Positions 44,249-48,312 are shown, counted from the stretch's first letter. The stretch: 64,000 nt of DNA from Gammaproteobacteria bacterium Ga0077536 (GCA_001464935.1 LNEL01000064.1:75567-139566), one strand, 5' to 3'. The notes: a model not told the origin generated them from the letters alone. A program made the numbers and translations.

Positions 44249-44824
44249 TCAGGAGCGGGCAGGGCCCTGGCGCAGCCCGGTATTCCCGGCAAGGAACAGC
44301 AGCGGCTGCAGCGACGGAATCTTTTCCAGGCGCGGCTTCAGCGACGCCCATTCGGCAGCACGCCGGCGAGCCGCGGCCTCACGCGCAGGATCGTTCGTCC
44401 GCAGCCTGGATTCCAGCTCGCAAATGCGCTCGACGAGCGCGGCGCGCTCGGTATCGACGGCCGTGAGGGCAACGCCGATGTCGAAGCCGTCGCTCAGTTC
44501 GCGAATCAGCACCACGGTCCCGACGAACCGCTCGACCCCGCGTCGCAACGGGATCGCCAGTTCGATGTCGGTGCCGACCGGCAACGGCTGGGTCGAATGA
44601 AAGCTCAAGCCCCCGCCGTCACGCCGACGCGCCGACGACCCGAGTCTGGGCCACCATTTGCGGACGGTTCGGCAGGAGAGGGGAAAGCCCCGCGGGTGTT
44701 GCAAGAACTGCCCGCGGAGCGTTTTCCGGGTGCCCGATTGAATCGGGTTCGCATCGAGAGGGACTAATTGGGGCAATGCCGCTGACGCGGCGCTGAGCGA
44801 AGCATGGGGGCCGAGATTGCGCAT
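44249..44824 (-). CDS. hypothetical protein with a PilZ-like C-terminal segment
   Basis: 191-aa ORF starting at ATG 44822-44824, directly below an AT-rich promoter-like island. The stretch DIELAIPLRRGVERFVGTVVLIRELSDGFDIGVALT resembles the C-terminal half of PilZ barrels, but no clean RxxxR/DxSxxG pair is present. The N-terminal ~70 aa are low-complexity, so the start is doubtful. Confidence 0.35.
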   Translation of the reverse strand: MRNLGPHASLSAASAALPQLVPLDANPIQSGTRKTLRGQFLQHPRGFPLSCRTVRKWWPRLGSSARRRDGGGLSFHSTQPLPVGTDIELAIPLRRGVERFVGTVVLIRELSDGFDIGVALTAVDTERAALVERICELESRLRTNDPAREAAARRRAAEWASLKPRLEKIPSLQPLLFLAGNTGLRQGPARS

Positions 44825-44999
44825 GGAACAATGTCTCTCAGCGAGCCTTAAACTCAGCTTTATTAATCAGTTAGTGGCGATATTTGTAGCTCTTCCTGAA
44901 GATGCTGTCAAGCGCGAGCGCAACTTAAGCTCAATAAAATGAAGCGACTGCCTTCGAAACCCAGAAACGACTTGAGCTAATGGCCGCGCCAGGGCGCGT

Positions 45000-45935
45000 T
45001 CAGCGCGGCGAAATGTCGAGCCACGCGCCGACCAGTTCGAGGGCCTTGCCCTGCGGATTGCGGATGCAGCGCATCGACTCGAGGATCGTGCGATAGGCGC
45101 CGTTGTGATGACGAATGCGGTAGGTCAGCGAATGCTCGGCCGCGCGACTGAGCACGAACTCGCGTACGCGTCGTTCGCGCTCGGGCGCGTCGTCCGGATG
45201 CACGGCCTGGGCCCAGAGTCCCGGCTCGACGATGATGTCCGTGCGTTCATGGCCGATGAGTCGCGCGAAATTCTTGCTGACGTAGGTCAGGGTTGGTGTG
45301 CCGCCGTCGCAGTCCGCGCTGTAGAGCACGGCTGGTGAAAACTCCACCCAGTATTCGAGCAGCTGATTCAGTTCGTCGAGTTCGCGCACTTTCGCATCGA
45401 GTGCGCGATTCGCATTCGCCAGTTCCTGGCGCAGCCGCCGCTCGCTTTTGACCAGGTGGTAGTGATCGAGCGCGTTCGACAGCGCGCGGTCGAGTTCGCT
45501 GCGCTCCCACGGTTTGCGCAGAAAGCGATAGATGTTGCCTTCATGGAGCGCCGCGATCGCGATGTCGATATCGCCAAAGGCGGTCAGCATCAGGGGCACG
45601 GTGTCAGGTGAACGCCGATGGATTTCGGCCAGCAGCGTGACGCCGTCCATGTTCGGCATCGAGTAATCCGCGACGACGACTGCAAATGGGCCGGCGCTGT
45701 CGAGCAGACTCAGCGCAGCGGCGCCGCTGTCGGCATAGACGCAGTCGTACGTATTGCCGACATGCCGTTTGATCAGCTCGATGATCTCAGGTTGATCATC
45801 GACGAACAGCACGCGTTCGTCATGTTCGCTCACCGGTGGTCTGCCTCGCGCCTGCTGCCCTACGTCAGGTCCCTCTTTATAGTTGGACCGCTGCGGCAGA
45901 TCCACTGGCAGGCGACGCAGCGTCGGTTGCGTCAC
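45000..45935 (-). CDS. response regulator receiver-PAS protein (no enzymatic or DNA-binding output domain)
   Basis: Canonical REC (LFVDDQPE, VVVADYSMPNMDG, LMLTAF, FLRKP), a coiled-coil linker, then a PAS domain (LYSADCDGGTPTLTYVSKNFARLIGH...). Confidence 0.75.
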   Translation of the reverse strand: MTQPTLRRLPVDLPQRSNYKEGPDVGQQARGRPPVSEHDERVLFVDDQPEIIELIKRHVGNTYDCVYADSGAAALSLLDSAGPFAVVVADYSMPNMDGVTLLAEIHRRSPDTVPLMLTAFGDIDIAIAALHEGNIYRFLRKPWERSELDRALSNALDHYHLVKSERRLRQELANANRALDAKVRELDELNQLLEYWVEFSPAVLYSADCDGGTPTLTYVSKNFARLIGHERTDIIVEPGLWAQAVHPDDAPERERRVREFVLSRAAEHSLTYRIRHHNGAYRTILESMRCIRNPQGKALELVGAWLDISPR

Positions 45936-45981
45936 AGATTCGCGCGCTGCCGGACAGCGCGCGTACCCCTTGTCGCAGGCG

Positions 45982-46800
45982 TCAGGTCGGCAGCGGATGC
46001 CAGCCCGCGTCAGCCCACAACTGGCCGCTGACAGCGGAGTTGCGCACGAGGAAACAGATGGCGTCGGCGATTTCTTCGGGCCGGATCAAGCGCCCGATCT
46101 GTGTGGCCGGCAGCACGTGCTTGTTGATGTAGTCTTCGCCCAGCGCCCGCACCATCGGCGTGTCGGTGAAGCCCGGATGCAGCACGGCCGTACGCACGCC
46201 GTGAAAGATGCCCTCGATCATCAGCGTCGACGCCGCGCCTTCGAGGCCGACCTTGGTGCTCGCGTAGGCGATCTGGCCCTTGTTGCCCTGCGAGGAGACC
46301 GAGCCGATGAAGACGATCACGCCCTGGGCGCCTTCGCTCGGATGCCAGCGCTTCAAGCCCTGCTTGAAGCGGCACTCTGCCATCTGCCCGACCAGTTCGA
46401 GCGCCCAGTAGACGGGGGCCACCAGGTTCACTTCGAGCACTTCGCGGAAAGTCTCGACCGGATACAGCTGGGCGACGCCTTTTTCCTTGTTGAGCTTGAC
46501 CGCGATGGCGTCGCGCGTGATGCCCGCTGCCGGGACCAGGATATTGACGACGCCGCAGGCCTCGCGCAGTTCTGCAAAGACCCGCTGGCGGAATTCGTCC
46601 TGGGTCGTGTCGCCCTGGAACGGTACCGCGACATCGCGGCCGGCTTCCGCGTTGATGTTGGCCGCGAACTCGTGCACGGCGGGAGAGCGGTCCACCAGTG
46701 CGACCGCCTTGATCTCGTACTTGATCAGTTCCCGGGCCGCCGCGAGGCCGATGCCGCTCGCCGCGCCGGTGATGATCGCGGTCTTACCTTTGATTTCCAT
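45982..46800 (-). CDS. short-chain dehydrogenase/reductase (SDR) family oxidoreductase
   Basis: TGAASGIG cofactor motif and YASTK catalytic motif. Start set at ATG 46798-46800 (MEIKGKTAIITGA). Confidence 0.8.
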   Translation of the reverse strand: MEIKGKTAIITGAASGIGLAAARELIKYEIKAVALVDRSPAVHEFAANINAEAGRDVAVPFQGDTTQDEFRQRVFAELREACGVVNILVPAAGITRDAIAVKLNKEKGVAQLYPVETFREVLEVNLVAPVYWALELVGQMAECRFKQGLKRWHPSEGAQGVIVFIGSVSSQGNKGQIAYASTKVGLEGAASTLMIEGIFHGVRTAVLHPGFTDTPMVRALGEDYINKHVLPATQIGRLIRPEEIADAICFLVRNSAVSGQLWADAGWHPLPT

Positions 46801-46925
46801 GGGGTCGCTTTCTGGTTGCAAAACGCACTAGCATTATAGAGACTCGATGATGCGTCGCAATAATCGGCGCCGACCCACAATCACGCCGGGCACCGTGCAG
46901 TGACCCGCTATCGGAAACACATCGC

Positions 46926-47300
46926 ATGAGTGCCCCGCAACGCAATGTCCTTGGCGAACCGCTCGAACTCTGTTCCCGTGACCCGCTGACCGGGTATTAC
47001 CGCACCGGCTGTTGCGAGACCGGCAGCGAGGACGTCGGTGAGCACACCGTCTGCGTGCAGGTCACCGCCGACTTTCTCGAGTTCTCCCGCGCCCACGGCA
47101 ACGATCTGACCACGCCGGTCCCGGCCGCGTCGTTTCCGGGACTCCTGCCCGGCGATCGCTGGTGCGTGTGTGCCGGTCGCTGGCTCGAAGCGCATCGCGC
47201 CGGCGTGGCGCCGCGCATCGTGCTCGTGTCGACCCACGAATCCCTGCTCGATTTCATCCCGCTGGCCGAACTGAAGCGCTACGCGATCGACCTCGTGTAG
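46926..47300 (+). CDS. DUF2237 family protein
   Basis: 124 aa with the family-typical GYYRTGCCETGSEDVGEHTVC, GDRWCVCAGRW and VAPRIVLVSTHE segments. Confidence 0.6.
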   Translation: MSAPQRNVLGEPLELCSRDPLTGYYRTGCCETGSEDVGEHTVCVQVTADFLEFSRAHGNDLTTPVPAASFPGLLPGDRWCVCAGRWLEAHRAGVAPRIVLVSTHESLLDFIPLAELKRYAIDLV

Positions 47301-47304
47301 CGCG

Positions 47305-48312
47305 ATGTCAGCCGCGCCGGGTCCCGACCCTGACGCACCGCGCACGCTGGCGGCGAGCAGGCTGCGATCGGCAGCGCTCATCGCGGCGCTGTCGGCCCGG
47401 CTGGACAGCGCGCTGCACGGCACCGACGCGATCGTGACGGTGGCAGCGGCCGGTTCGCTCGGCCGCCTCGAGGTGTCGGCCGGTTCCGATCTCGACGCCA
47501 TTGTCATCGTCGCCGATCGCCTCGCTGACGGCGCGGCGCCCGCGGCCGACGTGTACGCGGCGCTCGCGCACCCCGCGCTGAAGATGCCCAAGCCCGCCGG
47601 CATTTTCCGCCGCGGCGTCTCCGCCGCGGCGCTGTGCGCGCCGCAGGGACGCGGCGCGCTCGACGAAGCGCCCGCGCTGTTCGGCAAGCGCATCCAGTGT
47701 CTGCTCGACACGCGGCCGCTCTTCGGTGCCAGCGCTTTTGCTGATCTGCAGACCCGCATTCTCGATTGGTACGGCGCCGATCGCCTCCGGCTCGACCCGC
47801 ACGGCCAATGGACATTGCTGATCCACGATCTCCAGCGCTACCTGCATTCGTACGCCGCGTGGCAACAGCACAAGTTCGAGCGGGACGACGAAGACGGCTG
47901 GTATCTGCGTCAGGCGAAGCTGCGCAGTTCGCGACTCTTGACCTTTGCCGGCCTGCTGTTGCTGCTAGGCGCGAGCAGCCGACGCCACGACAAGCCCGCA
48001 TGGTTGCAGGCGCACCTTGCGCTGACACCACTGGAACGCATCGCGCGCGTGATGCGCGAGATCGACGCCGCTGCCTTCGACGCGATCGAATCCCGTTACG
48101 CGGCCGTGCACGCGCTGCTCGCGGATCCGGCGCAGCGCGCCGCGCTGGTCGCGCAGAGCCCGACGGCTCTGGACGAGGTGCCGACGCGCTGGCCCGAGCC
48201 CTATGCCGAGATTCACCGTCATACAGGCGAGATGCTGCTTGGGCTGACGCACTTCGTGCTGGCGCGCCGCGACGACTGGCACCCGGATTTCTTCAGTGAA
48301 CTGATGTTCTGA
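47305..48312 (+). CDS. DUF294/GlnD-like nucleotidyltransferase with C-terminal substrate-binding region
   Basis: Pol-beta-type NTase motif AAAGSLGRLEVSAGSDLDAIVIV, then a ~200-aa helical region. Starts 4 nt after the DUF2237 gene. Confidence 0.55.
   Translation: MSAAPGPDPDAPRTLAASRLRSAALIAALSARLDSALHGTDAIVTVAAAGSLGRLEVSAGSDLDAIVIVADRLADGAAPAADVYAALAHPALKMPKPAGIFRRGVSAAALCAPQGRGALDEAPALFGKRIQCLLDTRPLFGASAFADLQTRILDWYGADRLRLDPHGQWTLLIHDLQRYLHSYAAWQQHKFERDDEDGWYLRQAKLRSSRLLTFAGLLLLLGASSRRHDKPAWLQAHLALTPLERIARVMREIDAAAFDAIESRYAAVHALLADPAQRAALVAQSPTALDEVPTRWPEPYAEIHRHTGEMLLGLTHFVLARRDDWHPDFFSELMF

Follow-up and report, generated by a model that had tools for sequence, protein, structure and literature searches.

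A five-gene interval from an uncultured gammaproteobacterial lineage is probably conserved chromosomal backbone and carries a candidate RNA element

The interval considered here occupies positions 44249 to 48312 of a 64,000-nucleotide stretch of Gammaproteobacteria bacterium Ga0077536 (GCA_001464935.1, LNEL01000064.1:75567-139566), which is called the window below and whose positions are counted from its first letter. An initial annotation had described the interval as a divergent pair of small operons whose five products together looked like an uncharacterised signalling module. All five open reading frames (ORFs) were recovered at the coordinates given there in a mechanical ORF list, displayed a coding-type GC content at third codon positions (0.75-0.85) and, with the support of profile searches, confirmed both the gene list and the divergent layout. 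The five genes are of known kinds, and a nucleotide-level element at the 5' end of one of them is a candidate new feature. The following features were distinguished:

44249..44824, minus strand: PilZ-like gene, 191 amino acids (aa), with a non-canonical PilZ fold composed of a beta-barrel (approximately residues 40-119) and C-terminal helices
44758..44852, minus strand: conserved nucleotide-level element spanning the PilZ-like start codon (44824-44822), matched by a covariance model
44843-44837 and 44797-91, minus strand: outer arms of hairpin P1 of this element
44790-87 and 44782-79, minus strand: hairpin P2 of this element
44774-44760, minus strand: near-invariant motif GCCCCAATTAGTCCC of this element (the GCCCAAUUAGUCCC motif of the leader)
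44883..44911, minus strand: sigma-70-type promoter of the PilZ-like gene, read from the sequence, with -35 TTGACA (44911-44906), a 17-nt spacer and -10 TACAAA (44888-44883)
45000..45833, minus strand: orphan response regulator (REC-linker-PAS_3), 277 aa; the mechanical ORF reaches a GTG at 45935
45982..46800, minus strand: classical short-chain dehydrogenase/reductase (SDR), 272 aa (Pfam adh_short)
46801..46925, no strand assigned: divergent intergenic region between the SDR and DUF2237 genes, with promoter-like sites overlapping on both strands
46926..47300, plus strand: DUF2237 (COG3651) protein, 124 aa (Pfam)
47305..48312, plus strand: stand-alone GlnE/DrrA-type nucleotidyltransferase, 335 aa, with a polymerase-beta-like catalytic domain and a helical domain

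Gene calls on contig JALHNP010000008.1 and homologue alignments placed the start of the response regulator at 45833, giving 277 and not 311 aa, and that of the SDR at the ATG at 46800. The divergent gap is thus exactly 125 bp, as previously quoted, and its description as a divergent promoter region was borne out by promoter-like hexamers on both strands. The minus-strand site (TTGCGA-16-TATAAT, 46860-46833) displayed ten and the plus-strand site (TAGAGA-16-AATAAT, 46837-46864) nine matches out of 12; these face-to-face sigma-70-like hexamers span 46833-46864, and the promoter scan returned two sites where 0.7 were expected. The SDR gene would share this region with the genes for DUF2237 and the nucleotidyltransferase in the window. 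On the plus strand, the latter two genes are separated by only 4 bp. Intergenic gaps on the minus strand were larger (148 and 175 bp), so that a single operon is not evident there from the sequence. The PilZ-like gene would be transcribed from a strong, conserved sigma-70 promoter of its own: the pattern TTGAC-N17-TA(T/C)AAAT upstream of its ORF aligned in nearly all related loci, with unconserved flanks. This promoter was missing from the promoter scan because the scan demands a T at position six of the -10 hexamer.

A scan of a genome collection with the nucleotidyltransferase profile returned 55 loci, of which 41 shared neighbours with the window and 14 did not. Locus counts allow for contig ends, the denominators being eligible loci. 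Searches with the window proteins (tblastn) uncovered a conserved order in the 41 loci: hipA-like, orf70, orf113, avtA, PilZ-like, REC-PAS, SDR, nucleotidyltransferase and lolC/E, followed by DUF2237 and lpxR. The order was still kept where avtA and lolC were only 40-50 % identical, and the housekeeping flanks are as conserved as the supposed module. Gene lolC was convergent with the nucleotidyltransferase gene in all loci (38/38) and the SDR gene divergent from it in most (28/34), while REC-PAS and PilZ-like genes were present in 18 and 23 of 27 loci, respectively. DUF2237 lay directly upstream of the nucleotidyltransferase in only two of 38 loci; it was found beyond lolC on the other strand in 15 of 35 and was absent within reach in 12 of 26. 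It is a mobile neighbour, without a conserved position with respect to the nucleotidyltransferase. The gap between REC-PAS and SDR varied from 29 to 3179 bp and accommodated TauE-like, QueD-like and DUF4197-like genes (translations read by eye) as well as a glycosyltransferase.

The nucleotidyltransferase and SDR genes were also distributed independently of each other. The 14 nucleotidyltransferase loci without any neighbour common to the window were mostly from Planctomycetes; all-against-all ORF clustering of 13 loci uncovered no recurrent neighbour, and the adjoining genes encoded sulfatases, kinases, a Kdo transferase and TctC (Pfam), which are functionally unrelated. Conversely, among 45 loci of SDR orthologues with enough upstream sequence, four displayed the nucleotidyltransferase, five displayed lolC adjoining without it, and 36 neither. 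The SDR orthologous group occurs mostly without the other four genes. Given the variable order, the insertions, the losses and the independent distribution of SDR and nucleotidyltransferase, co-occurrence and fixed arrangement did not exceed general synteny. The interval is therefore best read, with a probability of roughly 0.6, as conserved chromosomal backbone of an uncultured gammaproteobacterial lineage, containing three or more functionally separate transcription units.

Two further observations were made on the flanks and on the loci. Positions 40767-42850 of the window harbored a HipB-like helix-turn-helix ORF, a HipA-like kinase (Couple_hipA, HipA_C), a 70-aa ORF and a 113-aa membrane-like ORF. 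Their order beside avtA was kept clade-wide down to ~40 % identity, which is unusually stable for a pair of toxin-antitoxin type. Several labels of metagenome-assembled genomes (MAGs) clashed with gene content and synteny, namely those of L007, L008 and L014 (Klebsiella pneumoniae), L003 (Hydrogenophaga intermedia) and L028/L035 (Enterobacteriaceae; L-numbers designate individual loci). These labels look like placeholders or errors and are thus unfit for taxonomy.

The response regulator displayed a full-length Response_reg domain (68.6 bits, profile positions 1-110 of 111) and a PAS_3 domain (54 bits). Pfam revealed no enzymatic or DNA-binding output and no further domain, in agreement with the earlier description. 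The acidic pocket, the phospho-acceptor aspartate and the conserved threonine and lysine were located by eye in VDDQ, VVVADYSMP, LMLTAF and FLRKPW. The REC domain was nearest to regulators of adenylate-cyclase type and HD-domain type (PDB 3kcn, 3hv2), a subtype usually fused to HD-GYP or cyclase outputs. In its succession of REC, coiled linker and PAS_3 without output, the protein resembles stand-alone REC-PAS response regulators, and nothing distinctive was found. No histidine kinase was encoded within ~10 kb on either side; a kinase encoded elsewhere would phosphorylate the protein, which would then signal through PAS-mediated protein contacts.

The PilZ-like protein scored 19.8 bits against Pfam PF07238 (cut-off 22.5), over the C-terminal two-thirds of the profile only, and displayed the PilZ beta-barrel fold. 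It was recovered in 26 further loci by tblastn and ORF extraction. A profile search uncovered a family of ~149 proteins, nearly all unannotated and restricted to one gammaproteobacterial clade, with the signature F-x2-H-P-x2-F-P ... I-P-L-R ... F ... V-E-x-I-C. The [D/N]xSxxG motif was lacking: the consensus was G-D-V-G-L-S-F and the window sequence D-G-G-G-L-S-F, with the Ser and Gly positions lost. The RxxxR region in front of the barrel read R-T-V-R-K in the window and a fitting R-Y-R-R-R in many relatives, only R52 being present in at least 90 % of members. With one motif absent and the other partly kept, the protein is non-canonical and binding of cyclic di-GMP (c-di-GMP) is not to be assumed; it is probably a protein-binding adaptor. 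A frameshift or a wrong start was ruled out, since the M-R/N/D-N start and the reading frame were conserved in relatives. The known counterparts are non-canonical PilZ-domain proteins such as the Xanthomonas proteins XAC1133 and XCC6012 (PDB 3cnr, 3ph1). In contrast to these, the family described here has its own signature, lacks a type IV pilus context, and its mRNA carries a conserved RNA-level element at the 5' end.

The SDR matched Pfam adh_short with 116.6 bits, and all its NCBIfam matches lay below the equivalog cut-offs. Twelve orthologues displayed invariant residues TGxxxGxG (T11-G12...G16-x-G18), N125, S167, Y179 and K183, and an invariant C-terminus, NSAVSGQLWADAGWHP, which is specific to this orthologous group. 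The nearest PDB relatives were acetoacetyl-CoA reductases, FabG and HSD10. The protein shares with them the Rossmann TGxxxGxG and the N-S-Y-K catalytic residues but differs by insertions around residues 100-115 and 140-160. At least 490 relatives with 60-91 % identity were found in metagenomes. Within the same genomes, conservation of the SDR exceeded that of lolC or avtA, but its gene neighbourhood was not stable; no conserved neighbour of distant orthologues, sought as a clue to the substrate, was found. It is a widespread, strongly constrained oxidoreductase, probably NAD-dependent. In a single locus (L004, 8620-9861), a thiolase-like ORF (acetyl-CoA acetyltransferase, read from its translation) lay between the DUF2237 and nucleotidyltransferase genes; together with the nearby FabG/PhaB-like SDR, this one occurrence hints at acyl-CoA metabolism.

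The DUF2237 protein matched Pfam PF09996 over its full length (176.7 bits, cut-off 25) as well as 4ioh, 2lq3 and 3ush, three uncharacterised proteins from structural genomics. Nothing distinguished it from the DUF2237/COG3651 member Tll1086 (PDB 4ioh; E 4e-48, full-length). For DUF2237, a recent preprint (bioRxiv 10.64898/2025.12.11.693642) lists only a phototaxis phenotype together with co-occurrence with proteorhodopsin and hints, from docking, that purine nucleotides are bound.

The nucleotidyltransferase was found as an identical protein on GCA_022843415.1 (contig JALHNP010000008.1) and on one JGI metagenome contig. The GS..SDLD polymerase-beta motif previously noticed proved to be strictly conserved: G50, S51, D62 and D64 were invariant in an alignment of 22 homologues, forming a G-x11-D-x-D motif which aligned with the SDLD of DrrA in a profile search of PDB sequences. 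The AlphaFold model was confident, with a predicted local distance difference test (pLDDT) score of 93 and a predicted template modelling (pTM) score of 0.91. Its nearest solved folds were GlnE and DrrA, which are both protein AMP-transferases (AMP, adenosine monophosphate), and its nucleotidyltransferase and helical domains superposed on one or the other. The predicted structure thus showed a GlnE/DrrA fold together with the G-x11-D-x-D catalytic motif. It also lends support, by fold, to the earlier idea of a nucleotidylylating role. The enzyme is probably a protein transferase for AMP or another nucleoside monophosphate (NMP), which would move the group from a nucleoside triphosphate onto a hydroxyl of a protein encoded elsewhere. 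Equally, it could take such a group off, as the N-terminal half of GlnE does.

Its assignment as DUF294/GlnD-like was only approximately right. DUF294 (PF03445) was weakly matched by 20 of the 22 relatives (best E 2.6e-6), fewer of which matched NTP_transf_2, SidM_N or GlnE, and some family members carry a precomputed DUF294 annotation. The window protein itself remained below the DUF294 threshold (14.6 bits, cut-off 21), displayed no Pfam or NCBIfam match above threshold, and matched neither GlnE (PF03710) nor SidM_N (PF20879). Weak matches to GlnE and SidM_N were seen in only four and five of the 22 relatives. DUF294 proteins typically combine cyclic-nucleotide-binding, CBS, DUF294 and DUF294_C domains, whereas the window enzyme has no cyclic-nucleotide-binding or CBS sensor domain. 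The C-terminal helical domain of DUF294-type enzymes has been classed with the GlnD/GlnE/DUF294_C group (PMC3710099). The window protein is better described as a single-module enzyme of GlnE/DrrA type. Its sequence identity with these two is 13-18 %; it forms one module of 335 aa, in contrast to the two modules (~950 aa in total) of GlnE, and lacks the domains for Rab guanine nucleotide exchange (Rab-GEF) and P4M which accompany the AMPylation domain of Legionella DrrA/SidM. Unlike GlnE, its family was not consistently associated with glnA or PII genes in the loci covered. An exhaustive profile search returned 1703 cluster representatives, 1113 of them at E<=1e-10. The best 150 of the 1703 matches were ~160-390 aa long, mostly 320-360, without long fusions among them, and the family members are apparently single-domain proteins.

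The conserved element at the 5' end of the PilZ-like gene emerged from an alignment of related loci, in which the promoter, a block around the first ATG, a short hairpin and the near-invariant motif stood out. The stem sequence of the short hairpin differed between loci. The motif, (AT)GCCCAAT(T)TAGTCCC, keeps a rare TTA codon in a genome of 66 % GC. Promoter, block, hairpins and motif were also encountered in seven loci devoid of a PilZ ORF (L005, L006, L007, L008, L015, L060 and L010), with copies at L005 8575-8670, L007 1720-1813, L008 9749-9847, L015 9668-9766 and L010 1025-1123. The element is flanked there by avtA and by the SDR or nucleotidyltransferase gene, and it ends in a strong, terminator-like hairpin. 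The frame initiated at the ATG stops after four or 13 codons in these loci, or reads the motif in another frame, which indicates a constraint on nucleotides and not on a peptide. The ORF-less set displayed a hairpin in two parts, whose loop contains the conserved block; 78 % of cells were paired compared with 65 % in shuffles (0/500 reached it), and compensatory changes affected eight of the 14 pairs.

A first covariance model, built solely from ORF-less copies, matched the window element with 32.6 bits (E 2e-5 over 1.34 Mb, 9e-7 in the window alone). It also found L003, L009 and L058 and nothing elsewhere in the 1.34 Mb, and one iteration added L062, L028, L029, L032 and L039. In the model-fitted alignment, which leans towards the model, 79 % of cells paired compared with 58 % in shuffles, and 19 of 20 pairs displayed compensatory changes. 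Rfam 15 returned no match at E<=1 in window positions 43900-48600 and none at the element in five ORF-less loci, and a c-di-GMP riboswitch in the PilZ-like leader was accordingly rejected. A repeated regulatory site or uptake sequence was ruled out as well, the motif occurring once per locus and always at the same position; one unrelated motif match, in L091, looks like chance. Covariance model R1 gave a weak second match in the window (49927-50008, minus strand; 14.1 bits, E 0.083), in a stretch of 73 % GC upstream of a 158-aa ORF (50019-50495). The conserved motif is missing from this match, which is probably a GC-rich hairpin formed by chance.

Several observations weigh against reading the interval as backbone with separate functions. 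The relatives all derive from MAGs, those of the nucleotidyltransferase almost entirely from MAGs labelled Gammaproteobacteria. The divergent SDR/nucleotidyltransferase arrangement was the rule in the clade, and REC-PAS and PilZ-like genes adjoined, 156-301 bp apart, in all 18 loci harboring both. The PilZ-like family and the close relatives of the nucleotidyltransferase were of similar size (~149 and ~136) and largely from the same lineage, which could reflect shared function or merely shared ancestry. Since synteny in this clade is high for everything, both pairs are weak candidates for functional coupling. That REC-PAS, PilZ-like and SDR form one signalling module with DUF2237 and the nucleotidyltransferase, under a shared divergent promoter, is nevertheless highly improbable. 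All five genes did lie within reach (10 kb) in 12 of 23 eligible loci, the 125-bp gap holds promoter-like sites in both directions, and a fold of nucleotide-binding type (PilZ) accompanies a nucleotidyltransferase. Yet the housekeeping neighbours were equally well conserved, and the set was broken by unrelated insertions, by the moving DUF2237 and by loci without SDR, REC-PAS or PilZ ORF. In addition, the SDR is widespread without the other genes, the nucleotidyltransferase is found on its own in other phyla, and the PilZ-like gene has its own promoter. The module proposed initially thus mostly failed its own co-conservation test and can be put down, as an artefact, to the high synteny within a single clade. 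A smaller unit, in which phosphorylated REC-PAS would signal through the adjoining PilZ-fold protein as adaptor or effector, the other three genes being unrelated, is rather unlikely but deserves more credit. Non-canonical PilZ proteins act as protein-protein adaptors, as in the PilZ-FimX-PilB system of Xanthomonas. The constant adjacency and the missing output domain of REC-PAS fit such a unit, and the PilZ-fold protein is a possible, unproven partner. Against it, the PilZ-like gene occurred without adjoining REC-PAS in L012, L037, L039, L040, L043, L044, L045 and L050, its promoter is independent, and the adjacency was no stronger than that of avtA and the PilZ-like gene, so that it may be plain synteny. 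Improbable, too, is a link of the nucleotidyltransferase with an anti-phage defence system, whether as part of it or as a domesticated relative. The PADLOC candidate PDC-M70A was matched by the window protein (E 6e-17) and by all 22 relatives (best E 6e-30), and its fold is weakly similar to Hailong HalB and MNT nucleotidyltransferases. However, no PADLOC model was matched by the other four window proteins or by any of ten ORFs adjoining the gene in loci without neighbours common to the window. Throughout a deep clade the gene moreover keeps its place between SDR and lolC, a setting that is not that of a defence island, and PDC-M70 is itself an unvalidated candidate, of which no mention was found in the literature.

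Opinion on the 5' element of the PilZ-like gene has to be more divided. A functional leader or small RNA is a plausible candidate, put forward tentatively. More specifically, the element may be an undescribed structured RNA with a sigma-70 promoter, two covarying hairpins and an invariant single-stranded GCCCAAU(U)UAGUCCC, serving both as leader and as small RNA; this too is tentative. The translation start of the PilZ-fold protein would sit within this conserved, probably structured RNA, which would control its translation in the window. Where relatives have lost the ORF, the element would live on as a small RNA of ~170-190 nt in its own right, capped by a terminator. It may just as well be that the conserved nucleotides represent promoter and N-terminal coding region without any functional RNA, the ORF-less copies being decaying remnants of a deleted gene, and this alternative is a serious if somewhat doubtful one. 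It is favoured by weak folding z-scores, namely -1.85, -2.28, -0.40 and -1.05 for ORF-less copies, -0.51 for the window and values between -1.1 and +1.2 for most PilZ-bearing loci. RNAalifold returned no consensus structure over all ~25 loci, structural support being confined to the ORF-less subgroup and to alignments fitted to the covariance model, and the ORF-less loci may represent a single sub-clade. At least 17 PilZ-bearing loci keep the first ATG in the frame of the PilZ ORF, so that the region is also translated there. The z-scores, the missing consensus structure and this translation tell equally against a functional RNA. Against decay speak the ORF-less copies, which form conserved islands (promoter, loop block and motif) amid diverged sequence, with compensatory changes in their stems. 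The motif was retained in a different reading frame or past an early stop, the rare TTA codon was kept, and the model built from ORF-less copies recovered ORF-bearing ones and nothing else.

The locus illustrates that a functional module is not established by conservation of gene neighbourhood within one deep clade of high synteny, and that a test for a module must take in flanking housekeeping genes and distant homologues. Both leads obtained here, the nucleotidyltransferase and the RNA element, stem from uncultured wastewater and freshwater Gammaproteobacteria, which limits their immediate impact. The nucleotidyltransferase family counts ~1,700 cluster representatives, has no Pfam or NCBIfam model and was not linked with glutamine synthetase genes at the loci seen; the enzyme may be the founding member of a bacterial family of stand-alone protein AMP-transferases, the target of which would be a housekeeping one. 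If it modifies a new target, bacterial AMPylation would extend beyond the few known cases. The element of the PilZ-like gene, if real, would be a new cis- or trans-acting RNA, and its presence both with and without a downstream ORF would offer an unusual natural comparison.

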